In this document: piece after piece, positions 2,595 to 33,695 of the stretch
Layout: each line of letters begins with the position of its first letter
Position numbering within the stretch: position 1 is the first letter of the stretch
Made by a program: the position numbers and the translations under genes
Virus record (IMG/VR): IMGVR_UViG_3300045988_145627
Coordinates: 22,146-86,145 of that record
Length of the DNA stretch: 64,000 nt
Direction: 5' to 3' (one strand)
DNA from: a virus
Taxonomy: Duplodnaviria; Heunggongvirae; Uroviricota; Caudoviricetes
Notes under the pieces: model-generated
What the model was told of the DNA's origin: nothing
Database searches by the model: none
Seen by the model: only the letters and a program-made list of their open reading frames with translations

Positions 2595-5500
2595 ATGTGG
2601 TACAGGGAAGGTACTATCACATTTACACAGGGTAGCAATACTCTGGTTGGGGCAGGGACAGCCTGGAACGTAACAGCTAATGGTGTGTTGCCGGGGATGA
2701 TCGTCATTGGCCCCGACAATAAGCTGTATGAGATCAAGCGCGTAATAAGCGATACGAATATTGTTCTCTCAGAACCTTATACCGGCGAAACTCAGTCTGA
2801 GGTTCCGTGCCGAATCATTACGACCTATGAAGGCGACTTAACACAGTTTAGCGCGCGCTTTACAGCACTAATGTCGCGTATGTCGGCTGATTCCAAGTCT
2901 ATGCGCAGTTGGTTGACTGCTCTGGATGAGGTGACAATCGAGCGTGAAGACGGTACAGAAGTAACCGTTAAGCCGCTAATGCAGATCGTCAACGAGCACA
3001 ACGAAAACGTTGAGTGGTATAAAAATAACACTGACGCGATTGATGCTGCTGGCGACAAAGCTCGTGAGGCGGCGGCCAGTGCTGCCGCAGCAGCAGAAAG
3101 CGCCAATACCGCTGGAGAAAAAGCCTCTCAAGCGTCTCAAAGTGCATCCGCTGCGGCATCCTCACAAAGTGCCGCAAGTGCGAGTGCAACTGCTGCGAAA
3201 AAATCTGAAACGAATGCCGCAGCGTCACAACAATCAGCAGCCACTTCTGCATCCACCGCGACCACGAAAGCGTCAGAAGCTGCCACCTCAGCCCGGGATG
3301 CGGCGGCCTCAAAAGAGGCAGCGAAATCATCAGAAACGAGCGCAGCCTCGAGCGCCAGTAATGCCGCTTCCTCGGCAACGGCGGCAGGAAATTCCGCGAA
3401 GGCGGCAAAAACGTCCGAGACGAACGCTAAGTCTTCTGAAACAGCAGCGGGACAGAGCGCCTCAACTGCGGCAGGTTCAAAAACAGCGGCTGCATTATCT
3501 GCCAGTGCCGCGTCAACAAGTGCCGGGCAGGCCTCAGCCAGTGCCACCGCCGCCGGAAAATCGGCAGAAAGTGCCGCATCGTCTGCTTCAACAGCCACAA
3601 CGAAGGCTGGCGAAGCCACTGAACAGGCCAGCGCAGCAGCGAGGTCTGCTTCCGCAGCGAAGACATCCGAAACGAACGCGAAAGCGTCGGAAACCCGTGC
3701 AGAATCCTCAAAAACGGCAGCCGCATCGTCCGCCAGTTCGGCAGCGTCATCGGCATCATCGGCGTCTGCTTCAAAAGATGAGGCGACCAGACAAGCGTCC
3801 GCAGCGAAGGGCAGCGCCACGACAGCATCCACGAAAGCAACAGAGGCGGCAGGCAGTGCGACGGCAGCATCTCAGAGCAAAACTGCTGCTGAATCCGCTG
3901 CGACCCGTGCGGAAGCTGCTGCTGATCGTGCTGAAGAGATTGCCGGTGCAGTTGCGATGGAAGACGCAAGCCTTACAACTAAAGGTGTTGTGAAACTTAG
4001 CAGTGCTGTCGATAGCACCAGTGAATCGCTGGCCGCAACGCCAAAAGCAGTTAAGGCCGCATATGATAATGCTGAAAAAAGACTACAGAAGGATCAGAAT
4101 GGTGCTGATATCCCCGACAAGGGCCGCTTCCTGAATAACATTAATGTTTACAGCAAAGGTGAAGTGGATAAGAAAAAGGGGATGCGAAAATACACTTTCT
4201 CTGCTCCTGCAAATGCAGTAAGCGGTAAGTGGTATCCTGTAGTCTTTCGCCGAACTGGTGGTGGCACAGATGAATTAGCCTCACGAGTGGTTATCACCAC
4301 TTATTCCTCAGCTGGCGGATACGCTATGAATAATTGTGAGTTTAATGGTTTTGTTATGCCGGGCGGTTGGTCTGATCGCGGTTCATATGCTGTTGGTTTT
4401 TTCTCAATATATTCAACCGTTGAACGATCTATACACTCGATTATCGCAAGCGTGAAAGATGATGATTTGTGTAGTGTATTTTACGTTGAGACAAGAGCAT
4501 TCCCTATCCAGATTTTTGCTGAGGAAGGATTAAATGTGATTGTTCCAACGGCTGATTATGCAGTTGGTCAAACCACTTATAAGTGGGGGGCAACTGATCC
4601 TTTATCAGAAAGTACGAATGCACAGATAATTTTGGACTTTAAAAATGGACGAGGTTATTACTGTTCACATCCATTTATTTCAAGTCTTTCAGGAAATGCT
4701 GCTACAGCAACGAAATTACAGACGGCAAGATCTATCGGTGGAGTTGGTTTCGACGGTTCTGCCAATATTAATCTTCCAGGTGTAAACACTACGGGTAATC
4801 AGAACACCACTGGTAATGCCGCAACTGCTACAAAACTACAGACGGCAAGAACTATCGGCGGCGTGAGCTTTGATGGTACTGCAAATATTAATTTGCCAGG
4901 TGTTAATACGACTGGTAATCAGAATACAACAGGTAATGCGGCTACTGCTACGAAGTTGCAGACTGCGCGTACTATTAATGGGGTGTCGTTTGACGGTTCG
5001 GCAAATATTTCCTTGTCACCAGCAAATATAGGTTGCCCAGCATCTCCTACTGGTTGGTTAACTACAGGAAGTAATGGCGGAGCAATAACAACAGCCCAGT
5101 TAGTGACGTTATTGCAAAATAATGGAGCCTTTAACACAAAGGCATGGATTGCTCGATGTGCGTGGGCCTATGCCAATAGCGCAACCATACCAAATAGTGA
5201 AACTGGTTGTGGCGTTATTCCATTGGCAGGAGCTGTTATAGAAGTATTTAATAACGGTAGTAGTTCAAATAATTATACGATCCGCATAACAACGGCCACA
5301 ACGACAAGTGTTTCCGGTGCTCTCACTAATGCGGAGTTTATCTATGTATTTAATGGCACAGATTATTCTCCAGGATGGCGAAGAGTATATAACACGAAAA
5401 ACAAACCAACAGCCTCTGATGTCGGTGCATTACCTCTTACCGGTGGTACATTATCTGGAGGTTTGACATCTTCTGGCGAGATCATTTCAAAATATGCAAA

Positions 5501-6822: not shown

Positions 6823-7158
6823 ATGGAGGAAAACATGTCGAACGAGATGGCGGGCGTTACAACAGAGCAAGTTGAGCGTATTGCCGCGATCGTTGCTCGG
6901 GAGGTTGTTGGCAAATTAGGTAAAGAGCTACGTGAAGAAATTGGCCAGGAGGTCAATGATCAGCTGAAAACCTACTTTGGTGATATGACCCCGGCGCAAC
7001 ATAGTATTCAACACTCCAATCTGGACAAACTCCTTAACCGGTTAGATTCCATCTCAAGTGGGTTCTTTGGCGGCATTGTTTCTAAAATAACGTCGTTCAT
7101 TATTACCGCACTGCTTTTGGGGTTAGCCGCGTATGGCGTAAAAAGTGGACTGCAATAA
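6823..7158 (+). CDS. Small membrane protein, holin candidate (single C-terminal TM helix)
   Basis: 111 aa with hydrophobic C-terminal segment ITSFIITALLLGLAAYGV; sits immediately upstream of the putative endolysin and spanin pair. Confidence 0.3.
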   Translation: MEENMSNEMAGVTTEQVERIAAIVAREVVGKLGKELREEIGQEVNDQLKTYFGDMTPAQHSIQHSNLDKLLNRLDSISSGFFGGIVSKITSFIITALLLGLAAYGVKSGLQ

Positions 7159-7171
7159 CAGGAGATCAAGG

Positions 7172-7864
7172 ATGAAGACTCCGAGAGGCATTCGTAATAA
7201 TAACCCCGGTAATCTTGATAAAGGATCACCGTGGCAAGGTCTGGTTGCGAATCCAGACGAACCGCGCTTTTGCACGTTTAAAGACCCTGTTTGGGGGATT
7301 CGTGCGCTGGCGGTGACTCTAATTACCTACCACGATAAACGTCGCGCAAAAGACGGCACAAGTATCGATACCATTCGTGAAGTTATTGAACGCTGGGCAC
7401 CGCCGAATGAAAACAATACTGACGCCTACATTAATGAGGTGTCTAAAGCCGTTGGTGTAACCGCAGACATGATCATCGATCTGCATGATTACGACATCCT
7501 TCGACCTTTGGTTGAGGCAATCATTCGCCACGAGAATGGCCGAGGCCCGCTAAAAACGCTGAACACCTGGTATGCGGCAGAAGTTATTGAGGAAGGTCTG
7601 CGTCGAGCTGGCGTTGTTAAGCCGGTGAAAACCGTGAAGGCTGTTCCTGTAACTAAAGAAACTGCAGGCGCAACTGTTACAGCAGGTATTGGTCTGGCGC
7701 AGCTGGCCGATGTTATGCCGCAGGTTTCCGCTGCTATGGATAAGGCACAAGGTCATATCTCTAGCGGGGATACAGTACGCATCATCTTCGGCATTGCCAC
7801 TATTGTTGTGGCTGGATTCATTGCCTGGTCGCAGGTAAGAAGACACCAGAAAGGGATGGTCTAA
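7172..7864 (+). CDS. Putative endolysin / cell-wall hydrolase with C-terminal hydrophobic segment
   Basis: ORF-track frame 7145-7864; ATG at 7172 has AGGAG-type SD about 7 nt upstream; GIRNNNPGNL motif; position between holin-like and Rz/Rz1-like genes. Enzymatic family not identified. Confidence 0.4.
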   Translation: MKTPRGIRNNNPGNLDKGSPWQGLVANPDEPRFCTFKDPVWGIRALAVTLITYHDKRRAKDGTSIDTIREVIERWAPPNENNTDAYINEVSKAVGVTADMIIDLHDYDILRPLVEAIIRHENGRGPLKTLNTWYAAEVIEEGLRRAGVVKPVKTVKAVPVTKETAGATVTAGIGLAQLADVMPQVSAAMDKAQGHISSGDTVRIIFGIATIVVAGFIAWSQVRRHQKGMV

Positions 7865-7865
7865 T

Positions 7866-8117
7866 ATGCTAGGCAGCCTGATGACAAAGCTAAAAGTTGC
7901 TTTGATTACGCTGGCTGCCGTTCTTTTCGTTCTGGTCGGCGCTTACACGATGGGCGGAAATGCGGCGCGACGAGCAATGGAAGAGAAGGCAAAACAGGAA
8001 GACAGGAAACGACTTCAAAGCACATTGGACGTCAAAAATGAAACACTTGATGAGTTACGGAGCAAGGATGCTTCTACTGTTCATCATGAGTTGCACAATA
8101 AATGGTTGCGTGATTAA
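7866..8117 (+). CDS. i-spanin (Rz-like): N-terminal TM helix plus charged coiled-coil
   Basis: 83 aa, TM LKVALITLAAVLFVLVGAY followed by EEKAKQEDRKRLQ..; start ATG 2 nt after the endolysin stop. Confidence 0.5.
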   Translation: MLGSLMTKLKVALITLAAVLFVLVGAYTMGGNAARRAMEEKAKQEDRKRLQSTLDVKNETLDELRSKDASTVHHELHNKWLRD

Positions 8118-8268
8118 GCCTCAACCCGCTGGTGTGCTTTTCTGCGATGCGGCTACACCGCTATACATCAGCCGTGATGATCTCATGACCGAAGAGACTG
8201 AAAGAGAGGTGCTTTTTCACAATATGATAGGGGAGCGATTGTGTGGATGGGGCAGAAAAGTACCATAA
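8038..8268 (+). CDS. o-spanin (Rz1-like outer-membrane lipoprotein) in the +1 frame, overlapping the 3' end of the Rz-like gene
   Basis: Within ORF 7960-8268; from Met at 8038 the product begins MKHLMSYGARMLLLFIMSCTINGC (signal peptide with lipobox-like IMSC / INGC) followed by a Pro-rich short mature part; this overlapped architecture is typical of Rz/Rz1 pairs. Confidence 0.45.
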   Translation: MKHLMSYGARMLLLFIMSCTINGCVIKPQPAGVLFCDAATPLYISRDDLMTEETEREVLFHNMIGERLCGWGRKVP

Positions 8269-8445: not shown

Positions 8446-8829
8446 ATGCTGAACGAAAAACGTTCTATACAAACAATTCGCGATTGCACGAGTGTTATCG
8501 CAACTCATGTGCTGAATAAGCGCAAACTTGAGGTGCGTAAACTTAACAACGATGCGACTGCGCCAAAAGACACTCGCTTCATCGTAACTTTCAAAGACGA
8601 TGTTGAGAATGCTGGTGCCAGTGTAAAACCGTTGGCTGAAGCGATTTTCCTGAACGATCGTGTTCGTTTCATTGTGAAGCCAGCAAAACAATACCCTGAA
8701 TTAGCACGGTTTAGTGACCAATTCTCTGAAATTATTGAGAGTGCAATTCGCCGCTTTCTTAATACTCATGGTAGCATTGTCAGCAATACAACTGCTGATG
8801 GTACTGCTCTAAGATGGCACCTACACTAG
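8446..8829 (+). CDS. Hypothetical protein (127 aa)
   Basis: ORF with AAGGTGGA SD-like sequence upstream; no recognisable motif. Confidence 0.4.
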   Translation: MLNEKRSIQTIRDCTSVIATHVLNKRKLEVRKLNNDATAPKDTRFIVTFKDDVENAGASVKPLAEAIFLNDRVRFIVKPAKQYPELARFSDQFSEIIESAIRRFLNTHGSIVSNTTADGTALRWHLH

Positions 8830-9566
8830 AACGCACATACTCTAAAAATCTTTATGAGTTTCCTCACCGTGGGGAAACTCGCGTTTCACGTTTTGGCTAC
8901 CTCATCAACGAAGCATCGCTTTTCAAAATATCTGAAATAACCATTATCGAGCCTGATGATGATATCTGTCTGTATATCCTGATGGAGAAAGTTGGAGCAC
9001 GAGATCAGGGTGAACTGATGGACTTCATTCTGGACAGAGGCGAAGATGGAATGTCTGATTCGGACATTATTCAAGCAATTCTGCGTTCCGACATGCTCGA
9101 TCAGAGCAGAAACACGATAGCAGGCAGAATTGCCTTGCGTGAATACACATTCATCGAGGATGGGGTAGAGATTGACTGCTATCAGATTGCAGGTGTTGAA
9201 ACAGAAAGAGCAATAAGGCAAAGGGGACTGTGCAACCTCACGTATCGCTTCCTCCTTCATTGGTACGAACATCTTGTCTGTGATTACAATCAGACCATTC
9301 CTGGCGCAAAAATCTGGGCCGGTCCATTAATGCGAACAGGTGATGTAAGAATTTACAACGCAAAAACTGAGACGTTCGAGGATGTGTTAGGCGAATATGG
9401 GATGGGAAAAGAAACCGGCTTTTTGCCGTGGAACAGAGGATTGTTACTTGATCCAGAATTAAGCTCTTGGTTTCCAAATAAGGTGCAAGTTAACGTTGAG
9501 AAATTTATCGTACTTATCATCTCCCGCAAAACAAGAACCCCAGTTGGTTTATATCTAAAAGATTAA
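8814..9566 (+). CDS. Hypothetical protein (250 aa)
   Basis: ORF overlapping the previous gene by 16 nt, followed by a strong terminator. Confidence 0.4.
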   Translation: MAPTLERTYSKNLYEFPHRGETRVSRFGYLINEASLFKISEITIIEPDDDICLYILMEKVGARDQGELMDFILDRGEDGMSDSDIIQAILRSDMLDQSRNTIAGRIALREYTFIEDGVEIDCYQIAGVETERAIRQRGLCNLTYRFLLHWYEHLVCDYNQTIPGAKIWAGPLMRTGDVRIYNAKTETFEDVLGEYGMGKETGFLPWNRGLLLDPELSSWFPNKVQVNVEKFIVLIISRKTRTPVGLYLKD

Positions 9567-9742: not shown

Positions 9743-10411
9743 ATGACCAAGATCTTTGTGGTTGGCGGCACAAAGGGCGGGCCTGGCAAATCCACCGTTG
9801 CCCAGCAAATTGCCGTTTGCCTGAAAGTCAAAAAGAAGAAGAAGGTTTATATCACTGATATAGATATTCAGCGCACGACAACAAGCTGGTGTGAAGACCG
9901 TCGACAGAACGAAGACCTTGAGCTGATTCCTTTTGCATACGTTCAGGATGACATCATTAAGCACCTAAAATCGCTTCAGGGTAGAGCTGAGTTTGTAGTG
10001 GTAGATGCTGGTGGCTTTGACTCCGAAATTCAGCGACAAGCGATGCTGATGGCCGACGTTATCATTATCCCGCTTCGTCCTAAGCGTCGTGATTTGAAAT
10101 CTCTGCGTGACATCGATCCTATTATCGACAATGTTCGTAATGTAAACGATAAAGTGAAGGTCCGCGCGGTCATGAACCAGTGCCCGGCTTTGCCATCACA
10201 AGTGTCTCGCATTCTGGCGGCTAAAGAGATTGTCGAGACGTTTGGCATCGAGTCTGCGCCAGTCAATCTATATAACCGCAACGTCTACGATGATGCGGAA
10301 GAGTCTGGTCGTTCTATCTTTGAAATGACCGGTAGCGAGCGCGACAAAAAGGCGGAAGCCGAGTTTGAAGAATTTGTAGATTATCTGTTGAGTCTGGAGG
10401 AAGAAGAATAA
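9743..10411 (+). CDS. parA: ParA-family partition ATPase (small type)
   Basis: Deviant Walker A GGTKGGPGKST near the N-terminus, 222 aa; followed by a small overlapping partner gene. Confidence 0.8.
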   Translation: MTKIFVVGGTKGGPGKSTVAQQIAVCLKVKKKKKVYITDIDIQRTTTSWCEDRRQNEDLELIPFAYVQDDIIKHLKSLQGRAEFVVVDAGGFDSEIQRQAMLMADVIIIPLRPKRRDLKSLRDIDPIIDNVRNVNDKVKVRAVMNQCPALPSQVSRILAAKEIVETFGIESAPVNLYNRNVYDDAEESGRSIFEMTGSERDKKAEAEFEEFVDYLLSLEEEE

Positions 10412-10770
10412 TGTCCATGAAAATGGGTGACCTAGCAAAGCGCAAAGAGCCTGATGCACCGGCCAAGAACACAACTCCTTTGCGCCAACCAGTCAGACCA
10501 CAGGGACGCCCGACTCGTGGCAAAGAGAAAATTAAAAGCCGCACAATGTCACTGGAAGACGAATACTTCGAACTGCTGGAGATGATGAAGTTCATCCCTC
10601 GCTTCGAGAAATTCACCCGCTCTGATGTGATTCGTGCTGCTATTTTCCATCTTGCGGAGAAGACACCGCAGGAAATCGAGGACATCGTAAAGCTGAACGA
10701 GGCGATCACAGCTGCCGATGTCACGATGCGTACCGATGAAATTAAACGCGAGTTGATGAAGAAAGGTTAA
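10411..10770 (+). CDS. Partition centromere-binding protein, ribbon-helix-helix type (ParG-like)
   Basis: 119 aa, basic disordered N-terminus then SLEDEYFELLEMM..RSDVIRAAI segment typical of RHH folds; TAATG overlap with parA. Confidence 0.55.
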   Translation: MSMKMGDLAKRKEPDAPAKNTTPLRQPVRPQGRPTRGKEKIKSRTMSLEDEYFELLEMMKFIPRFEKFTRSDVIRAAIFHLAEKTPQEIEDIVKLNEAITAADVTMRTDEIKRELMKKG

Positions 10771-10771
10771 T

Positions 10772-10800
10772 AATGTGGGCTGTCTAGCCCACATTATTTT
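10772..10800 (+). terminator. Rho-independent terminator after the partition operon
   Basis: aatgtgggctgtctagcccacatt perfect hairpin followed by T-rich run. Confidence 0.75.
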
Positions 10801-10821
10801 AATTAAAGTGGAGTGATAATT

Positions 10822-11574
10822 ATGCATTCGTTAGTATTTGCATTTAAAAACATACTCAAGAATGTTATAAACATACTAGGGATGTTAAATATTTTTTTGT
10901 CTGTGAGGGTGAGGAGAAAAGATATAAAAGATAAAATAAAGGAACTTAACAAAGAAAAAGAACAATTAAAAAGCGAAGAAATTATTATTGATTTATACAA
11001 GAAAAAACTCGCATCTAGCAAGGGGAAAGCTAATGATAAAATCAAAGGAAAAATTATTCACTATATTATTGCTAGAGAGTTGGGGAATGATCCTGATAAT
11101 GAAGATTTTCGACATAATCTTTTTACAAAGATAAAAGAATCAGAAGAACAGGTTGAAGTTCTGGTTCATCAAAGAGAAGTAAGTGAGCAGGCGAACAAAA
11201 AAGAAACGGTTGTCAATTTGTTTTTATTGTATGAAAAAAATAAATTGTTTAAAGCTAAGGGGTTGGCTGTGTTTCTTATAGTTATAAACTTAATTATAGT
11301 TGCGACTCTCGATCTTCCAGCTTGGTCATTGATTATAAGTTTTTTTATTCTCTCTTTGATTATGTTGAAAGATCAGATACTTACTATTCGTGTCTCTAAA
11401 GGATATTTTGGCACAAGTGCGTATGAAGCGGTTCAATTGCTTAAATTCATCAGAGAAAATTCAGACAAATTTGACTCAGATGATAATGACGGTAGCCCAC
11501 GACGGATATTGAATCCGAAGGGAACAACAAAAAAATCAGACAACCTATTCGATAAAGGGTGGCAAAATGTTTGA
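10822..11574 (+). CDS. Hypothetical membrane protein, very low-GC gene (first of an overlapping pair)
   Basis: ORF-track frame 10813-11574; ATG at 10822 with GGAG 8 nt upstream; Lys/Glu-rich central region, hydrophobic segments LAVFLIVINLIIVATL and SLIISFFILSLIML. Confidence 0.45.
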   Translation: MHSLVFAFKNILKNVINILGMLNIFLSVRVRRKDIKDKIKELNKEKEQLKSEEIIIDLYKKKLASSKGKANDKIKGKIIHYIIARELGNDPDNEDFRHNLFTKIKESEEQVEVLVHQREVSEQANKKETVVNLFLLYEKNKLFKAKGLAVFLIVINLIIVATLDLPAWSLIISFFILSLIMLKDQILTIRVSKGYFGTSAYEAVQLLKFIRENSDKFDSDDNDGSPRRILNPKGTTKKSDNLFDKGWQNV

Positions 11575-11989
11575 CCTTGACGCCATCACTAAGTTCTTAA
11601 ATCAGTGTTTTGATCTACTTTTGCTCAAGCAGCCTTTAAGAACTGTTTTCGGAATACTGATTGGTTTCATTATTTTTGTTTTTGTTTACACGTTTAGGTT
11701 TGCGATAGCTCAAGATTTTTATGAAATAGATGGCGTGCATTACGCTGCATGTTTCGTCATCGGTGTTTTAGTTGTTCACACAAGAACATTTTTTGACGTT
11801 ATCAAGGGCACCGCAGTTGATGAAGAAATAGATAGTATGATCAGAGTTATTACGAAGCAGCCACACCTATCTAACCATCAAAAAAACATAATGATTGCTG
11901 AAATACTTCAAAAAGAAATTGCAGCCATAAGTCAAAAGAGATTGGATAAAGTTGCACAAGAAATGACGGAGAAAAAGACAACTGATTAA
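11567..11989 (+). CDS. Hypothetical membrane protein, low-GC (second of the pair)
   Basis: ATGTTTGA overlap with the upstream gene; two hydrophobic segments (VFGILIGFIIFVFVYTF, AACFVIGVLVV). Confidence 0.45.
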   Translation: MFDLDAITKFLNQCFDLLLLKQPLRTVFGILIGFIIFVFVYTFRFAIAQDFYEIDGVHYAACFVIGVLVVHTRTFFDVIKGTAVDEEIDSMIRVITKQPHLSNHQKNIMIAEILQKEIAAISQKRLDKVAQEMTEKKTTD

Positions 11990-12160
11990 TTTAATTACCT
12001 GTTTCTGTATATAAATAATAAGTAACTTATTAAATATATATACGGAAGCAGGTCTTTTAAAAGACACCCACCAGAACAACTCCCTTCCGTTTCCACTTCC
12101 AAAAACTGCCACCAGTCGCTATCATCCGCTCATTGTGATAAGTAAGTAACTACCTACTAG

Positions 12161-12910
12161 GTGAGCCACATGAGCCAAATCTTTTTCGATACCATCGACA
12201 ACAACCAGTACGACTTCATGACAGAGTGGAATACCGCTGTTATGGACAAGTGGGTTGCTGAAAACATTGGTTTGTCGCGCTGCAAAGACGAGGCTGAACT
12301 CTTCGAGACGAAGTGGTTTGATTACCGCGACATGCATCCTCTCATGGCCACCTGCCTTTTTACGGAGGCATACAAACGTCAGTACTCAAATATCATGCTG
12401 ACGCACGGTCGCGAACACTTTGAAACAGCTCCGTTCACCACCGGGTTAAAACGCCTGCCTTATCAGGAGTTGTCGACTGCCAATAAAACGTCTCTATGGA
12501 AAGCACGCCAGTTTGCTGACCGCTATTGCTGCTCATACGACTACTTTATCTCCACCGTTCTTTCCGCAGCTGCACGACGGCTGTGGGACAAGCTGCCGCG
12601 CCCACAGCATTTATGGCAGCCAGAACTGATTGAGATATTTGAAGAGAAATTAGCCAGACGCGCAACAACCCGTCTGGATGACTCTCTGGTTAGCTTTAAG
12701 TATATGGGAGACATGCAGTTCAACCCGATTCAGGAAAGCTATTTTGAGTGGATTCTGGAGCGTTTGCGCACCATCCCTCGCAGTAAGCGCATACGCGCAA
12801 TTTTCTCCGCTATCTGGCTAATGGAAATCGTTCCAGAGCGCCTTATTTCCGCCCACTTTCCAGAAGAACTGGAAGAAGCACGGCGGTTTATTGATCCCCT
12901 ATCTAATTAA
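12161..12910 (+). CDS. Hypothetical protein (249 aa)
   Basis: ORF begins with GTG at 12161, alternative ATG at 12170; no recognisable motif. Confidence 0.5.
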   Translation: MSHMSQIFFDTIDNNQYDFMTEWNTAVMDKWVAENIGLSRCKDEAELFETKWFDYRDMHPLMATCLFTEAYKRQYSNIMLTHGREHFETAPFTTGLKRLPYQELSTANKTSLWKARQFADRYCCSYDYFISTVLSAAARRLWDKLPRPQHLWQPELIEIFEEKLARRATTRLDDSLVSFKYMGDMQFNPIQESYFEWILERLRTIPRSKRIRAIFSAIWLMEIVPERLISAHFPEELEEARRFIDPLSN

Positions 12911-12953: not shown

Positions 12954-14294
12954 ATGACCGAACTTTGCCATACAGGACGCGGGCTGTCCGAAGAGTTTGA
13001 TGAAGATTTCCAGAACAGACTGACGGCATATTTTTGTCGTGATCACGAGTTTCTTACTCGTGCGGGAGATCTGGTTGTGCCTAGCCAATTTGCCAATGCG
13101 GCCAATGCCATATTGGTTAATATGGTTTCGGGCTATTACCGTATGTACAAGAGCGCGCCCTCTTCATCTGCAATTCTGGATATGCTTAAGCGTGCGAAAC
13201 GCGATAAGACTATCCGTGAGGAACTATTCGCCGATGTTGTTGCTGCGTTTAAGCGCATCCTTGCAGAAAAATTGTCCGATACCTCGTACATGGTTGACCA
13301 GGTATCAACCTTCGCAAAAAGCGTAGCGTTTGATGATGCTCTGATTAAGGCTGCTGAACTGAAAGAGAAGGGCGACTTTCAGGGGGCGATGGCAATCATG
13401 GCCAAGGTTCAGCAGATAGGCTCGAACGAAGCAACCGGAATCTATGACTACTACATCTCAGCAAGTGAGCGACTGAAAGCGCGTGAATATGAGGCCTCAG
13501 AGGAGTATGTGCCAAACAGCATTACAACTGGACTCCCTCTGCTCGATAGGTTGCTGTACCAAAAAGGCTGGGCGAAGCGTGAAATGGTGCTCTTCATGGG
13601 GTTCGCTAAATCCGGTAAATCGACCGCAATGGGTGAGTTTTCCATAAACGCAACGCTTGCTGGCTACAATGTTCTGTATCTCTCGCTGGAGGTTCACACC
13701 ACCATTTTATCCGACCGTTTTGATGCAAGATTGTCGGAGACAGAAATGTCCAAGCTGGTGGAACGGCGCGATGAGGTTCATCGTAAGTTGGCAGAGTTGG
13801 GAGCCACGAAGGGGATTGGTAGTTTGTGGGTGGTTGAGCGTCCGTCAGGAAGTATGTCACCGGCAGATCTGGACCGTATGCTTAACAGCATGAAAGCCAA
13901 CGGCATGGTGCCTGACATGGTTGTTGTCGACTACGCAGATTTGATGCGTGCCAGTTATGACCTTCGTGATGATCGCGCCAACATTCGTAGTATCTACACC
14001 GATTTACGTGCTCTTTATGACAAACATAACGTTGCTGGAATCACGGCATCGCAGACAAACCGTGAAGGTGGCGCGTCAGAAGTTGCCACAATGATGCACG
14101 CCGCCGACAACATCGAAAAAGTACGTATTGCTGACCTGGTAATAACGATCAACAAAACCGAAGAAGAAGAAGCGAAAGGAGAGGCTCGTCTCTACTTTGC
14201 TGGTTCACGTAACCAGCAGGGAGGGATCAGCATTCGTGTTAAACAAAACCTCGAACAAATGCGCTTCATTGAGCGAATCTTAGACGTTACCTAA
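12954..14294 (+). CDS. dnaB: Replicative DNA helicase, DnaB family
   Basis: Walker A GFAKSGKST, Walker B VVVDYADLM, ITASQTNREG motif typical of DnaB C-terminal domain; conserved AAAGGAAAGCACATG start context. Confidence 0.8.
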   Translation: MTELCHTGRGLSEEFDEDFQNRLTAYFCRDHEFLTRAGDLVVPSQFANAANAILVNMVSGYYRMYKSAPSSSAILDMLKRAKRDKTIREELFADVVAAFKRILAEKLSDTSYMVDQVSTFAKSVAFDDALIKAAELKEKGDFQGAMAIMAKVQQIGSNEATGIYDYYISASERLKAREYEASEEYVPNSITTGLPLLDRLLYQKGWAKREMVLFMGFAKSGKSTAMGEFSINATLAGYNVLYLSLEVHTTILSDRFDARLSETEMSKLVERRDEVHRKLAELGATKGIGSLWVVERPSGSMSPADLDRMLNSMKANGMVPDMVVVDYADLMRASYDLRDDRANIRSIYTDLRALYDKHNVAGITASQTNREGGASEVATMMHAADNIEKVRIADLVITINKTEEEEAKGEARLYFAGSRNQQGGISIRVKQNLEQMRFIERILDVT

Positions 14295-14375: not shown

Positions 14376-15557
14376 ATGAGCCTTTATGTTATATCAACAT
14401 TTAGGTTGGTCACAATATTGCCTGTTAAAAGTGGAATTATCGTGAGCGAGCTGAAAGAGATAATTACCGAATTAGATTTTGAACAATGGTTGGACACTGA
14501 AGGTATCGTTTATCGACGTGGAGGCGTGAGTTCTCGCGGTCGTGAAGTGAATATCAAAGAGTGTCCGGTATGCGGCAGCTCCAACTGGAAGGTATATTTC
14601 AATCTGACCAGTGGCGTCGGCAAATGCTTTGCTGGTGATCATCCCGAAGAGATTCAGTTCAATAAGCTGGTCTTCCTCAAGCACTACAGCGGTAAATCAC
14701 GACGACAGTTCGAGGAATATGTGCAGAACGCTCTTCTTTCCCAGGGGTGGGCACCAAAGAAAGAAGAGATAGTGCTTACAAGCACAGTCGAGTTAGAGGG
14801 ACCACTTGCACTCCCTCGTCATTACGAACTTCCTATAGATGGCCGTCTTCCAGACTATCTGGTTGAACGAAACATATCGCCTGAAATGGCAAAGTATTTT
14901 GACCTACGATACTGCGTCGAAGGCAAGCACGCTTATGTAGATCCGTATACAGATCAGGTAAAAGGACAGATATTCGATATGCGAGTACTGATACCGGTTT
15001 ACGATCTGGATGGGGTAATGAAGACATTTCAGGGACGAGACATTACCGGTACAGCAGACCGCCGCTACCTCTTTCCTATGCAGCTTCCAGCTTCAGGTAA
15101 GTTTCTCTACAACGGCCATAATGCAGTTGGCAAACAGACTGTAGTTGTCTGTGAGGGGGCGTTCGATGTTATGGGAGTTAAACGAGCTATTTTTGATGAA
15201 GAAACATTACGTGATTACGTGGAACCGATAGGAACGTTCGGGATGCATCTATCTGGTAACACCACTCAGGATGCAGAAGATCAGTTAGGCGCGTTCCTGA
15301 CGCTCAAGGCGCGTGGGTTACGTAATGTGATCATGATGTGGGATAGTGAAAAGCAAGCTATACGCAACACGATGGCCGCAGCCAGGCGATTGACCAGTAT
15401 TGGTCTTAATGTCAAAGTTGCGTGTTTGGGCGAGGAAGGACTCGACCCCGGCGATGCGACACCGGGGCAGATTATCAAAGCCTACTATTGCGCAAAACCT
15501 TACTCACGACAGCTTGAACTTTTAAGCAAGGTAAAAGGTATAGCAGCATTAGTTTGA
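14376..15557 (+). CDS. DNA primase (zinc-binding N-terminus plus TOPRIM domain)
   Basis: CPVCGSSNW..GKCF zinc-ribbon-like motif, VVVCEGAFDVMG TOPRIM glutamate motif; start set at the ATG preceded by the conserved AGAAAAACACATG context (ORF-track frame begins at 14304). Confidence 0.65.
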   Translation: MSLYVISTFRLVTILPVKSGIIVSELKEIITELDFEQWLDTEGIVYRRGGVSSRGREVNIKECPVCGSSNWKVYFNLTSGVGKCFAGDHPEEIQFNKLVFLKHYSGKSRRQFEEYVQNALLSQGWAPKKEEIVLTSTVELEGPLALPRHYELPIDGRLPDYLVERNISPEMAKYFDLRYCVEGKHAYVDPYTDQVKGQIFDMRVLIPVYDLDGVMKTFQGRDITGTADRRYLFPMQLPASGKFLYNGHNAVGKQTVVVCEGAFDVMGVKRAIFDEETLRDYVEPIGTFGMHLSGNTTQDAEDQLGAFLTLKARGLRNVIMMWDSEKQAIRNTMAAARRLTSIGLNVKVACLGEEGLDPGDATPGQIIKAYYCAKPYSRQLELLSKVKGIAALV

Positions 15558-16586
15558 ACCAGTATTAGTCACGTAAACATTGACCGAAAATGATTTAACT
15601 TCTGTGTTGAAGTTGTCAGTCATTACCGCGAGGTAGGCATTCTTGGTATCTCTGAATTGCTTCAGGATGATTTGAACGTTATCGGTGCAAACAAACGAGG
15701 TAGCCAGATTGCCTCCTTTCTCTGAAAAATCCTTTAGGAAAGTGCAGTCAATTTTGCCATCATTAGCGGTGAAGGTGGCATCATCACCCTGCCAGGTAAA
15801 TGTTGCGTTAACGCCTTTATCAATGGATTTAGCAATAAGTCGTTGAGTGGAGGATTTTGCTTTAGATCTTGCAGCTGATGGTTGGTATTTACCGCTTTCT
15901 TTTAGTTCTGCAATGTAATCACAGCCATTTTTATCTTCTTTATCGCAAGCTGCCTGATAAAGCTCAGCTGCTTTTTTATAATCTTTTTTAACCCCTTCAC
16001 CATACTCATACATAATGCCAAGATTCGCCAATGCAGATGCACTGCCTAGTTCGATTCCTTTTTTATAATACTCTATTGCCTTTTTGTAGCTTTTTGGCAC
16101 GCCTGCGCCAACATAATATAACTGTCCTAAATATGACGCAGATTCAGGGTCGCCAGCCTCTACTGCAAGTTTGTGATATTTCAGGGAAAGTTTTTGGTCT
16201 TTCTTACCCGCAAGTCCTTTATGATAAATAACACCCAGATTGTGATAAGAGTTGCCTCCAGCTGCATCACCAGCTTTCTTAAAGAGTTCCTCTGCCTTTT
16301 TGAAATTTTTATCAACCCCATACCCAAGGGCATACATTATACCTAGAGCATTAAACGCTTCTTTGTTCCCCTTAGAAGTCGCCAGTTCAAGCCATTTTCT
16401 GGCTTCATCGTAGTTTTTTTCGACACCATGAATACCTTTCATATAGTCGATACCTAAAGCACTCTGTGACTCAACGTCGCCTGCTTTTGCCGCATCGATC
16501 AGCTTTTGTATTTCATAGGCATGTGCACTCCCCGAAACAAGTAATAGCGACAACATAAAGAAAGATATTGGTTTGAAATGTTTCAT
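15549..16586 (-). CDS. Secreted Sel1-like repeat protein with non-repeat C-terminal domain
   Basis: N-terminal signal peptide MKHFKPISFFMLSLLLVSGSAHA; about eight 36-aa Sel1-type repeats; opposite strand to neighbours. Confidence 0.65.
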   Translation of the reverse strand: MKHFKPISFFMLSLLLVSGSAHAYEIQKLIDAAKAGDVESQSALGIDYMKGIHGVEKNYDEARKWLELATSKGNKEAFNALGIMYALGYGVDKNFKKAEELFKKAGDAAGGNSYHNLGVIYHKGLAGKKDQKLSLKYHKLAVEAGDPESASYLGQLYYVGAGVPKSYKKAIEYYKKGIELGSASALANLGIMYEYGEGVKKDYKKAAELYQAACDKEDKNGCDYIAELKESGKYQPSAARSKAKSSTQRLIAKSIDKGVNATFTWQGDDATFTANDGKIDCTFLKDFSEKGGNLATSFVCTDNVQIILKQFRDTKNAYLAVMTDNFNTEVKSFSVNVYVTNTGSN

Positions 16587-21403: not shown

Positions 21404-22738
21404 TCATGCCAAATTATCCAGATTTCTTTTCTTTTGTTCAATTATATTTCTCGCGCCAGAAAAAATTTTACTCAAAATAATTGATTTGCTTGCTCTATTA
21501 TTAAGATGTAACAACGCGCTATAAAATACATAGTTATCTATTTTACTATTTAAAGTATTCCCAAGCTTCCCGTCATATATGCTATTAATAGTATTAAAAT
21601 ATACATGTTCAGGACCTATATTACAAATACCCCTATCAACTCGCTTTAAATAATGTTTAACTAAAGAAATAGCATCTTCCTTATCATTAATAACATAAAG
21701 TCCTGAGCGTTTACCCAGTTTGCTGTTCGAGAGCAATTTACAACCTACAAGCTCACTTAACGTATCTTCAAAATTTTTCAACTCTTTGTCGGCGTTTTCC
21801 AGATAATGCTCAATCTCTTTCTCCATATTACTTATTAGAGAATTAAATTCTGCTCGTAACAAATCACCACCAGGTGATTTATAACTCCATAAAATTGAAT
21901 TGGTAATACGTACTACGTCAGATACTTCTGGTTTCTCTGAATAGTTTTTGTATCTAGTGCAAATAATGCTGTGCTTTATATATTCTCTAACTAATGATCG
22001 ATAATCCCTTTCGAAAAGGGTTTTGACATCTAGTCTTCCATTGCTTGTTGTTATTAGTGTGGTATTTAAAACTGGGTCGCCTTCAAAAAAATTATATTTA
22101 TTTAGTAATCGTTTTAGCTTGTGTGAATTATGTGATGTTTCGCCATAATAATTTAGCCCAAAAATAGCAATTATTAGCATAACATCAGGAGTGATGAAAT
22201 GTCGTAATTGCTCGGCATAAACTTTTTTCTCTTCGATTTTCGAAGATGGAGAGTAAAAACCTTTGTCTATATATTCTAATATTGAAACAATATTACTAAC
22301 ATAACGTATAAAAACTTGATTCATTACAACGGAACCATAAACCTGATGCAAATAATCTACTCTCAAGTTGTTTTTTATTTTTTCCCCTGTGCTAGATGAT
22401 AACTCTTCTTTTACCTGCCCAAGTAGCTTTTCGTGGTGCTCCAGCAATGTTTTAAACCATTGTTCAAATGATGATTTTCTTGCCTCAGTTAATGAATCTG
22501 ATGTTATCTGGACAGCTTTCATAGCTGCTTTCGCACTTTTCTTTGCTTCATAAGCGTTCCATGCTGTAGCACAAAAAGCTGCCGCCGTGATGCAACTGGT
22601 AAAAATAGAAATCCTATCTGCAACATTCAAGCTCCAGAACCAATCAGACGATGAAATCAAAACCACAGATATTACGGGAACAATGAAAATCAAAACAGGC
22701 ATGTATGTACTCGCTCTAATAGTTATTAGTCGAGGCAA
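21404..22738 (-). CDS. Hypothetical membrane-anchored protein, low-GC (444 aa)
   Basis: Two N-terminal hydrophobic helices followed by ~380 aa Lys/Asn/Tyr-rich soluble region; opposite strand to neighbours. Confidence 0.5.
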   Translation of the reverse strand: MPRLITIRASTYMPVLIFIVPVISVVLISSSDWFWSLNVADRISIFTSCITAAAFCATAWNAYEAKKSAKAAMKAVQITSDSLTEARKSSFEQWFKTLLEHHEKLLGQVKEELSSSTGEKIKNNLRVDYLHQVYGSVVMNQVFIRYVSNIVSILEYIDKGFYSPSSKIEEKKVYAEQLRHFITPDVMLIIAIFGLNYYGETSHNSHKLKRLLNKYNFFEGDPVLNTTLITTSNGRLDVKTLFERDYRSLVREYIKHSIICTRYKNYSEKPEVSDVVRITNSILWSYKSPGGDLLRAEFNSLISNMEKEIEHYLENADKELKNFEDTLSELVGCKLLSNSKLGKRSGLYVINDKEDAISLVKHYLKRVDRGICNIGPEHVYFNTINSIYDGKLGNTLNSKIDNYVFYSALLHLNNRASKSIILSKIFSGARNIIEQKKRNLDNLA

Positions 22739-32696: not shown

Positions 32697-33695
32697 CTAT
32701 CTTGAATTAGGGGCTTTCTCTATAATTATTCGATTCAGAATATGATTACGATCACTGTATGGTTCGAAATGTTCTGCAATCGAGTATGAACCGACACTAC
32801 GTGCGACCACATCTTCAAAATATTCAAGGATTTTAGGTAGATACTTTTCATAATTTTGTGAACAAATCGACACTACAGGATCGAATTCTACTAATCGACG
32901 CTTTACACGTATATGGTTATTTATTTTTTCATATTCATTCATCATAGAGTTCAAGTCTGGTACTACCCGCTCAGGGCTACACAGGTAGGTGCTGCGGTCA
33001 TACTCGTCTCCGAATTTATCAAGAGGAACACCTATCTCTAGCAACGTCTTGTTTACTCGCTTTGCAAGCTCAATTATCTCTTTATCTTCTTCTGTAAGCC
33101 ACATGTCGACCCACTTTTGTTTGTCTGCCCATTCAGACAGATAATCATCCTTATTGAAAGTTACAGGAGCACATCCAGAGTCACTTCTTAATGCTTTATC
33201 CTTTATTTTAGAAATTGTTTTTTTATCTAAATGCTTCCAATAAATAGCAGGTTCGTCTAATTCATTATCATCGTGTAGGCATATCAAAACAATTACCACA
33301 GGAAAATCACAACTTCCCCAATAGGTTATATTTTTATAAGGTATTTGTACGCTTAACCTTCTCTTCATTTTGCGTGAGGTGGTTTTTATCTGAACGCCGA
33401 TAAAAAAACCTGTCGAAAGATTATTTTCATATATTTCAACCTGAGCATCCAATCCCATATCAATATCTAGCAATCGACAAGGCCATCTGAAATAACGAGA
33501 AATCCAATAGGCAAACAAGTACTCTCCAGCGTGTCCATCCGCACTGGTTTTCGGATATGTCATACCTTCAGTTTTATTCTTTTCTGCCGCTGGCTTTACA
33601 GACTTAGCTTTTGGGGGGAGGGCTGTTTTTTTAGTCGGCACTGACTTTGTTGCTTTGACTTGTTTGTTAGCCTTATCCATTGGTTTTATTCTCAA
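32697..33695 (-). CDS. Hypothetical protein with restriction-endonuclease-like (PD-(D/E)xK-type) core candidate, low-GC (332 aa)
   Basis: Lys/Pro-rich N-terminal tail then GHAGEYLFAYWISRYF..DIDMGLDAQVEIYE..FFIGVQIKTT (D..E..QxK spacing); only reverse-strand gene in the replication block; TTG start at 33695, alternative ATG 15 nt downstream. Confidence 0.5.
   Translation of the reverse strand: MRIKPMDKANKQVKATKSVPTKKTALPPKAKSVKPAAEKNKTEGMTYPKTSADGHAGEYLFAYWISRYFRWPCRLLDIDMGLDAQVEIYENNLSTGFFIGVQIKTTSRKMKRRLSVQIPYKNITYWGSCDFPVVIVLICLHDDNELDEPAIYWKHLDKKTISKIKDKALRSDSGCAPVTFNKDDYLSEWADKQKWVDMWLTEEDKEIIELAKRVNKTLLEIGVPLDKFGDEYDRSTYLCSPERVVPDLNSMMNEYEKINNHIRVKRRLVEFDPVVSICSQNYEKYLPKILEYFEDVVARSVGSYSIAEHFEPYSDRNHILNRIIIEKAPNSR

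Follow-up and report, generated by a model that had tools for sequence, protein, structure and literature searches.

The 64,000-nucleotide (nt) window analysed here (positions 22,146–86,145 of the IMG/VR virus record IMGVR_UViG_3300045988_145627) belongs to an SSU5-like phage-plasmid of Escherichia coli, and it is locally 99.9–100% identical to NZ_CP050499.1. The subject of this analysis is a pair of adjacent genes, referred to below as A and B, found directly downstream of the partition genes, where the local gene order is lysis genes, a variable slot, parA, parB, A–B, gene X, a DnaB-like helicase gene and a primase gene. Gene A (10822–11574, plus strand) encodes a protein of 250 amino acids (aa), has an alternative GTG start at 10813, and is preceded by a ribosome-binding site (GGAG at 10810–13) with a spacing of 8 nt to its start. 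Gene B (11567–11989, plus strand) encodes a protein of 140 aa. As described in the initial annotation, the two open reading frames (ORFs) overlap, the ATG of B overlapping the TGA of A in ATGTTTGA; in near-identical plasmids, both coding sequences are also annotated by RefSeq.

At the junction of the two genes (11555–11574, plus strand), the Shine-Dalgarno sequence of B, AAGGGTGG (11555–62), is located within the final codons of A and directly 5′ of the B start. It coincides with a Gly codon that is conserved 4–6 codons before the A stop. An overlap of 4, 8, 11 or 14 nt between the A stop and the B start is kept by most of the alleles examined, even where identity falls to about 20%; in the compared alleles from SSU5-like backbones, it invariably measures 8, 11 or 14 nt, and the GC content is 0.30–0.39. 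No overlap was observed at three distant loci (L023–L025), where B starts 4–8 nt from the A stop. Judging by this gene geometry, namely the conserved overlap and the Shine-Dalgarno sequence inside A, the translational coupling of B to A that had been suggested earlier is plausible.

The pair had also been described as one of the most AT-rich segments of the window, and profiling against the backbone bears this out. The coding GC content is 0.313 for A and 0.352 for B, compared with 0.47–0.49 for parA, parB, X and dnaB, and the GC content at third codon positions is 0.29 and 0.33, respectively, compared with 0.51–0.57 for the same four genes. As few as 0.56% of equal-sized windows are as AT-rich as A/B, and the only ORF with a lower value is the one at 21404–22738.

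Comparison by blastn with close-backbone relatives that carry other cargo (L010, L015, L002 and L003) delimited an exchangeable cassette of leader, A and B at about 10774–11995 (plus strand). On the left, homology ends at 10772–10774, directly after the parB stop; on the right, it is back at 11991–11998, directly after the B stop, and in the case of L010, which has a divergent A/B allele, it resumes already at 11972. The left flank is formed by conserved backbone genes, parA (9743–10411, plus strand; 222-aa product with Pfam ParA/MipZ/CbiA matches) and a parB-like gene (10411–10770, plus strand), whose products are 82–100% and 91–100% identical among relatives, respectively. The right flank consists of gene X (12170–12910, plus strand; about 246 aa; PHROG 2500, function not annotated), followed by the DnaB-like helicase gene (12954–14294).

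A hairpin with a perfect 13-bp stem (10769–10798, plus strand) overlaps the parB stop and is followed by UUUUAAUU; the 71-nt stretch containing it has a folding energy of −21.5 kcal/mol (z = −3.8). The par terminator that the initial annotation placed at 10772–10800 is thus a real hairpin with a slightly different span, yet it does not belong to the par operon as a constant terminator. The cassette types of L002, L010 and L015 are without it, their homology with the window stopping at 10773–10774, and it is also missing from the SSU5-type alleles, in which A starts 1 nt past the parB stop. The hairpin is a terminator- or attenuator-like leader element of one cassette type. The leader is shared only with the KAP-NTPase cassette of L004, with homology running to position 10837 of the window and including the hairpin, the ribosome-binding site and the first five codons, so that one recombination junction falls inside the cargo-gene start. 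In L004, which stands for other SSU5-like plasmids of E. coli with KAP-NTPase cargo, the counterpart of 10774–10837 is found at 2575–2638.

The right border of the slot is marked by an AT-rich palindrome of 57 nt (11997–12053, no strand assigned; −26.1 kcal/mol, z = −6.6), which is part of the backbone: it has at least a partial match in 15 out of 15 related loci, irrespective of their cargo. It may act either as a bidirectional terminator or as a recombination boundary. The TAAGTA palindrome pointed out earlier at 12137–12158 is no better than chance (z = −1.45, 16/200 shuffles).

Among the 715 plasmids with a match to the par region, 74 contain a homologue of A and 73 a homologue of B (about 10%). 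The plasmids with A/B are all non-mobilizable, mostly about 105–130 kb in size, and were found in Klebsiella, Escherichia, Enterobacter, Cronobacter, Citrobacter and Salmonella. The pair is also present in phage SSU5 (SSU5_035/036) and in Klebsiella phage pJN2-26, and a narrow-pattern scan of genome contigs yielded one further SSU5-like locus, from Buttiauxella. The exact allele of the window is rare, as it occurs in 7 of the 5,426 complete E. coli genomes, plasmid-borne every time. In the sampled relatives without the pair, the slot is occupied by other cargo: a 255-aa GIY-YIG protein that matches PD-T4-3 (1e-23), DUF2971 proteins that match PDC-S31 (3e-41 and 2e-33), or a 564-aa KAP-family NTPase that matches PDC-S49 (2e-22). 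Searches by tblastn among plasmid records gave 174 matches for the PD-T4-3-like protein, 473 for DUF2971 and 128 for KAP, counted over whole plasmids irrespective of position in the slot. PD-T4-3 has been reported in SSU5-group elements of E. coli and Shigella by an independent survey (bioRxiv 10.1101/2025.09.12.675607).

These comparisons agree with the earlier view that the segment was acquired: it is a sharp-bordered cassette carried by about a tenth of the relatives and exchanged between backbones, and neither universal synteny nor a backbone-like composition was seen. The position between parB and the palindrome is fixed between conserved genes, and its sampled alternative occupants match known or candidate defence models. 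Thus, in the operational sense of Rousset et al. 2022, this slot can be classed as a putative defence-hotspot position.

Pairwise comparison of the proteins encoded at 13 loci revealed a pronounced difference between the cassette and its surroundings. The mean identity is 89–95% for ParA, ParB, X and DnaB, compared with 39% for A and 47% for B; most A/B alleles are 26–53% identical, as against 82–100% for the backbone proteins between elements. Between the window and L010, for instance, the identity is 98% for ParA, 99% for ParB, 99% for X and 100% for DnaB, but only 30% for A and 40% for B. The reverse pattern was observed for L009 (Enterobacter ludwigii) and L010 (E. coli), in which the number of synonymous substitutions per synonymous site (dS) is 0.08–0.18 in the cassette and 0.9–1.7 in the flanks; the same pattern of a young cassette in an old backbone, albeit weaker, was found for the window and L006. 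Entire alleles are thus exchanged through recombination at the borders of the slot. The ratios of nonsynonymous to synonymous substitution rates are 0.07–0.29 for A and B and 0.01–0.06 for the flanking genes. A and B therefore are real, constrained genes, which evolve faster than the backbone, yet under purifying selection.

Hydrophobic helices and Lys/Glu-rich segments, noticed in the initial annotation, were recovered in both proteins (transmembrane, TM, helices in A and B) and in A (the Lys/Glu stretch), respectively. Protein A starts with a weak hydrophobic helix (aa 11–30), followed by a variable Lys/Glu-rich helical part (aa 31–125; nt 10912–11196) with 22 Lys or Arg and 20 Asp or Glu among its 95 residues, a conserved helix, ETVVNLFLLYEK (aa 126–140), a TM hairpin (aa 141–189; nt 11242–11388) and, within aa 190–250, a conserved juxtamembrane motif, RVSKGYFG...EAVQLLKFI, and a C-terminal tail. 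Conservation within the family is confined to the C-terminal half, where a TVVxLFLLxEK helix precedes the tight TM hairpin; the consensus after the hairpin is LTYRVxKGFFG....EAxQLLKFIxxNxD, continuing into an acidic/Gly stretch that ends in R(K/R)I. In other A alleles, the N-terminus comprises one or two clear TM helices, after which comes either a shorter coil or a domain of about 110 residues that is not a coil. Protein B is conserved over its full length. It has an N-terminal helix, a PxRTxxGxxxG motif opening the first TM helix (aa 22–49), a very short acidic loop, a second TM helix (aa 54–76) with a conserved Gly followed by GxAxxE, and a charged, helical tail of 64 aa with an LSxxQK motif. 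Based on hydropathy and charge, both proteins are predicted to insert as hairpins with periplasmic loops of no more than 10 residues, so that nearly all of their mass would be cytoplasmic.

The models generated by AlphaFold are all-helical, with a mean predicted local distance difference test (pLDDT) score of 60 for A (about 78 for aa 120–215, low elsewhere) and 68 for B. Structure prediction, one of the checks proposed earlier, thus gave weak models without a fold match: Foldseek returned no match at E < 1 for the A and B models against PDB or for B against BFVD. A PDB sequence-profile match to 9hnh_A (1.8e-4) was judged to be compositional, the target apparently being a repetitive E/K-rich helical sequence. 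No paralogy was detectable between the C-terminal module of A and B (hhalign probability, 10%).

Searches of Pfam, NCBIfam and PADLOC gave no family match for A or B, in line with the earlier remark that neither protein has recognisable motifs, and no homology to structural or lysis proteins was found. In PADLOC-DB v2.0.0, only weak coiled-coil-type matches were obtained (PDC-M02B, 0.0024; LeoBC, 0.011; JetC, 0.02), and the A homologue of L048 has no PADLOC match. A belongs to PHROG 22270 (5.9e-115 over aa 12–250) and B to PHROG 17322 (1.8e-68 over aa 1–136), both of which are families without functional annotation. The names assigned by JGI, 'DNA gyrase/topoisomerase IV subunit A' for A and 'histidine transporter YuiF' for B, are supported by no family match.

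Word-indexed homolog searches retrieved 8 clusters for A and 4–16 for B, all of them 'hypothetical'. An exhaustive HMMER search with the B profile extended the B family to 210 representative clusters (E ≤ 1e-3), of which 27 also pass E ≤ 1e-10; with few exceptions, the 210 are 120–160 aa in length and aligned over most of it. An A-family gene immediately precedes B at all B-family loci whose sequence extends upstream by about 700 nt or more. These upstream genes encode 144–282 aa, overlap B or end a few bases away from it, and share homology with A in its C-terminal module (BLASTP, 1e-6 to 1e-24; hidden Markov model searches, 1e-29 to 1e-48). Similarly, A is followed by an overlapping B at all 22 of the IMG/VR loci with the A motif, 14 of which are on SSU5-like backbones and eight on others. 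Deep members of the B family (L049–L051, L053; P0046, P0059, P0080) have an N-terminal extension of 55–60 residues; no A-type partner was detected upstream of them within the short contigs available, so relatives of the module may exist that consist of a single gene or have a different partner.

Outside the SSU5-like elements, the pair was found in a variety of mobile contexts, with a GC content of 0.26–0.38 against 0.45–0.6 in the surroundings. In P2-like prophages of Enterobacter bugandensis, it is flanked by the tail-completion gene and the baseplate gene V, at the site that the nonessential orf30 occupies in P2 and that is one of three loci of P2-like phages that carry horizontally acquired genes (PMC3091744). 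In a Pantoea element, it is located downstream of Ash and a P4-alpha-type primase, in a low-GC stretch beside a STAND/NACHT NTPase gene. The latter (L040, 7362–9314) lies just downstream of the pair and encodes a low-GC, 650-aa STAND/NACHT-type NTPase with a weak Avs2 match (PHROG 18297); it is probably a further defence gene, located like the pair in this accessory stretch. Genes for an NsnA/PD-T4-2-like protein and a cytosine methyltransferase are found near the pair in a P2-like variant, and in an integrase-bearing island it adjoins the gene of an Mrr-type restriction enzyme. The remaining contexts are a Kluyvera chromosomal island, where an invasin-like gene is nearby, a Salmonella integrative and conjugative element (ICE) with TraG/TraD, topoisomerase III, AcaB and Hok, and other prophage regions with antirepressor, ParB-like, tail or excisionase genes or a divergent helix-turn-helix repressor. 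The breadth of the family outside Enterobacterales rests on metagenomic contigs (GC, 0.27–0.61), because the pattern used for scanning genome contigs was narrow and added only Buttiauxella.

In organisation and proposed logic, the closest analogues of A/B are the RexAB-type systems (lambda; Sbash gp30/31; CarolAnn gp44/43; Pseudomonas putida RexABpp), which have the same two-gene prophage cassette layout. As in lambda, a larger first gene (A, 214–282 aa; RexA, 279 aa) is followed by a smaller one for a membrane protein (B, 133–166 aa; RexB, 144 aa), expression in lysogeny is presumed, and the proposed logic would be that of a sensor and a membrane effector (PMC12894663). Membership in the RexAB family fails, because no Pfam match was found (E ≤ 1 for RexA), sequence comparison with RexA and RexB was negative, and the hhalign probabilities against the lambda proteins are below 1%, namely 0.06% for the A profile against RexA and 0.24% for the B-family profile against RexB. 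The proteins also differ in their relation to the membrane, since RexA is a soluble DNA-binding protein and A, with its TM hairpin, is predicted to be membrane-embedded, while RexB has four TM helices and B two predicted ones.

The cargo of the P2 and P4 hotspots (Rousset et al. 2022; the 2026 survey in Nucleic Acids Research) is likewise AT-rich and swappable, occupies a fixed slot and has defence genes as alternatives; the main carrier of A/B, in turn, is an SSU5-like phage-plasmid. Some of the validated P2/P4 hotspot systems include transmembrane partners thought to be effectors (PMC9122126). As far as the accessible parts of the hotspot papers go, A/B is unlike the systems described there, that is, gop-beta-cII, RT-nitrilase (reverse transcriptase-nitrilase)+TM, HAD hydrolase+TM, PARIS and AC1 TIR/TM, as well as Crouga, Bandua, Aernus, Toga, Reve and Hailong, and no pair of small membrane proteins is among them. 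The P2 site of the pair is the orf30 slot between S and V, and the words 'orf30' and 'baseplate' are absent from PMC9122126. The comparison of A and B with P2 Orf30 was negative at both the sequence and the profile level.

On this evidence, A/B is a self-contained, horizontally exchanged two-gene membrane cassette of the prophage type, drawn from two unnamed protein families and carried as accessory cargo in a hotspot of SSU5-like phage-plasmids. Since the cassette occupies slots where anti-phage genes usually sit, it is a good candidate anti-phage system, and the earlier proposal of an exclusion or abortive-infection module is strengthened as far as location is concerned, by the defence-type occupants of the slot and by the recurrence of the pair in recognised insertion sites. 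The reading that we prefer, while giving it slightly less than an even chance, is that of a membrane-acting module directed against phages or other mobile elements and working in the manner of RexAB-type systems. According to this reading, transcription of the par operon would, in the plasmid (lysogenic) state, read through into the pair, as its position suggests, with the leader hairpin damping the read-through, and translational coupling would ensure that both proteins are made together. A and B would insert as helical hairpins and, given their architecture, could assemble via those transmembrane and juxtamembrane segments that are conserved. Sensing of the invading phage or other mobile element might then fall to the N-terminal part of A, which is variable and predicted to be cytoplasmic, after which the conserved membrane core of A and B would compromise the inner membrane, and the infection would be aborted or excluded. 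A broader proposal, which we regard as more doubtful, would make A/B the founding member of a family of two-protein immune systems of the inner membrane, one that is widely mobile and has gone unrecognised. In such a family, the A hairpin with YRxxKGxFG...EAxQLLKF and the PxRTxxGxxxG hairpin of B would form the effector core, the interchangeable N-terminus of A would determine specificity, and phage-plasmids, P2-like phages, P4-like satellites, ICEs and islands would trade whole alleles with one another.

As background in favour of the preferred reading, six out of eight randomly chosen cargos of unknown function protected against phage in a P4 hotspot study (PMC13586616). Several points weigh against a defence role. 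The assignment amounts to guilt by association, and some hotspot cargo, for instance partition systems and toxins, has no part in defence (PMC9122126). Neither protein matches a PADLOC model, and six accessions, including those of both proteins, are absent from the DefensePredictor supplements. Sensor and effector roles, as well as the interaction between A and B, are conjectural, because the structural models are of low confidence and lack a fold match. Expression in lysogeny is suggested by gene position, a strong hairpin stands between parB and the pair in the allele of the window, and the promoter-like sites found are no commoner than in shuffled sequence, for which reason no promoter is claimed. 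In the literature, SSU5_035/036, the WP accessions and the PHROG identifiers are mentioned nowhere in the papers searched, nor is the pair described in the accessible portions of the P2/P4 hotspot papers or of the SSU5 survey.

Other roles have to be weighed against the same evidence. T4 Imm and P22 SieA are proposed to block genome translocation without harming the cell, and A/B, located in the inner membrane, might similarly prevent the genomes of related phages from entering while the cell remains intact. Such an exclusion at DNA entry would suit small inner-membrane proteins of a temperate element that are probably made in lysogeny, and T4 Imm, T4 Sp and P22 SieA are likewise small phage-encoded inner-membrane proteins that protect the carrier cell from other phages; the divergent alleles on near-identical backbones would also fit an arms race with related phages. 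Nevertheless, we consider it unlikely, as the predicted periplasmic loops do not exceed 10 residues and the variable part of A is predicted to be cytoplasmic, A and B form an obligate, mostly cytoplasm-facing pair with no match to any Pfam superinfection-immunity family and no Pfam similarity to the proteins above (SieA and Sp not being aligned directly), and excluding the relatives of the carrier makes less obvious sense on an ICE, in a P4-like satellite region or on non-phage islands, where the pair also occurs. The ICE and the Kluyvera locus with its nearby invasin-like gene would fit some other accessory membrane function that benefits the host or the element, be it anti-defence, conjugative entry exclusion, stress or ion homeostasis, or host interaction. 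No family assignment constrains the role of the pair, and hotspots hold non-defence cargo as well (PMC9122126). The probability of this option is also low in our estimation: the pair repeatedly adjoins defence-type genes in unrelated elements, and allele divergence on conserved backbones points to antagonistic coevolution instead of a housekeeping-like benefit.

The compact overlapping operon right after the partition genes would also suit an addiction or stabilisation module, in which a membrane-damaging toxin and its neutraliser kill element-free cells and any anti-phage effect is secondary. Plasmids, prophages, satellites and ICEs, the carriers of A/B, are all common homes of toxin-antitoxin pairs; a GNAT/DUF1778 pair occupies the neighbouring slot in relatives, and Hok/Gef-type modules (a Hok/Gef gene is present in the same Salmonella ICE) are likewise compact plasmid or ICE cargo with a possible action on the membrane. 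Known membrane toxins, however, are much smaller peptides with RNA antitoxins or are countered by small soluble ones, whereas A and B are both proteins of 133–282 aa, each with its own conserved motifs, and both are predicted to be sizeable integral membrane proteins. Moreover, they have no similarity to toxin or antitoxin families in Pfam, NCBIfam or PADLOC, the sampled alternative cargo of the slot consists of single-gene defence candidates with no toxin-antitoxin pairs among them, and about 90% of the related plasmids do without the pair, so that stabilisation seems improbable as the main function. A holin/antiholin-like module timing the lysis of the phage-plasmid itself is suggested by B alone, which resembles class II holins and pinholins in its small size, two predicted TM helices, predicted N-in/C-in topology and charged C-terminal tail; the putative fit is one of hydropathy and charge distribution, and the structural model is of low confidence. 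This is by far the least credible of the options. The lysis cassette lies elsewhere (about 6823–8268), comprising a holin-like ORF (6823–7158) and two ORFs (7145–7864 and 7866–8268) whose counterparts in Cyrano and pJN2-26 are annotated as endolysin and Rz/Rz1 spanins, and these endolysin and spanin genes are 2.5 kb upstream of the pair, with other genes and the par operon in between. No holin match was found in Pfam and no lysis match among the PHROGs, B is always paired with A, nine-tenths of the relatives lack the pair, and it is present on a non-lytic ICE and on islands without lysis genes.

Several other features of the window were recorded. A second variable slot (8446–9566), situated between the lysis genes and parA, contains two overlapping genes (127 and 250 aa) with no Pfam or PADLOC match; in relatives, this slot holds a GNAT/DUF1778 (KacAT-like) toxin-antitoxin pair, a HEPN-domain protein gene, or a reverse-strand gene of 173–185 aa. 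The 444-aa ORF at 21404–22738 (minus strand), where the AT content of the window peaks (GC, about 0.32), has no PADLOC match and may be another acquired cargo gene. In a further low-GC patch, a 332-aa ORF (32697–33695, minus strand) matches the PADLOC model Aga_REase-PNTD1-PNTD2 (1.7e-10), which is of the Argonaute-associated nuclease type. The gene at 15549–16586 (minus strand), convergent with the primase gene, encodes a protein of 345 aa that apparently has a repetitive sequence and a signal sequence at its N-terminus, and its counterpart in NZ_AP022089 is annotated as a tetratricopeptide repeat protein. The most GC-rich kilobase is 3001–4000, with a value of 0.583 compared with the mean of 0.45.

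Many candidates of comparable kind exist. If A/B turned out to be an addiction or exclusion module instead of a defence system, a recurrent unannotated cargo of clinically relevant plasmids would still be explained. If the pair is protective, the bacterial immune repertoire would gain a new membrane-based system, very compact and built from two families unnamed in databases. In that case, the parB-proximal slot of SSU5-like phage-plasmids, elements often found in E. coli, Shigella, Salmonella Typhi and Klebsiella, would rank with the P2 and P4 hotspots of defence genes. The natural series of alleles on near-identical backbones could be used to map specificity and to study the movement of cassettes between mobile elements.

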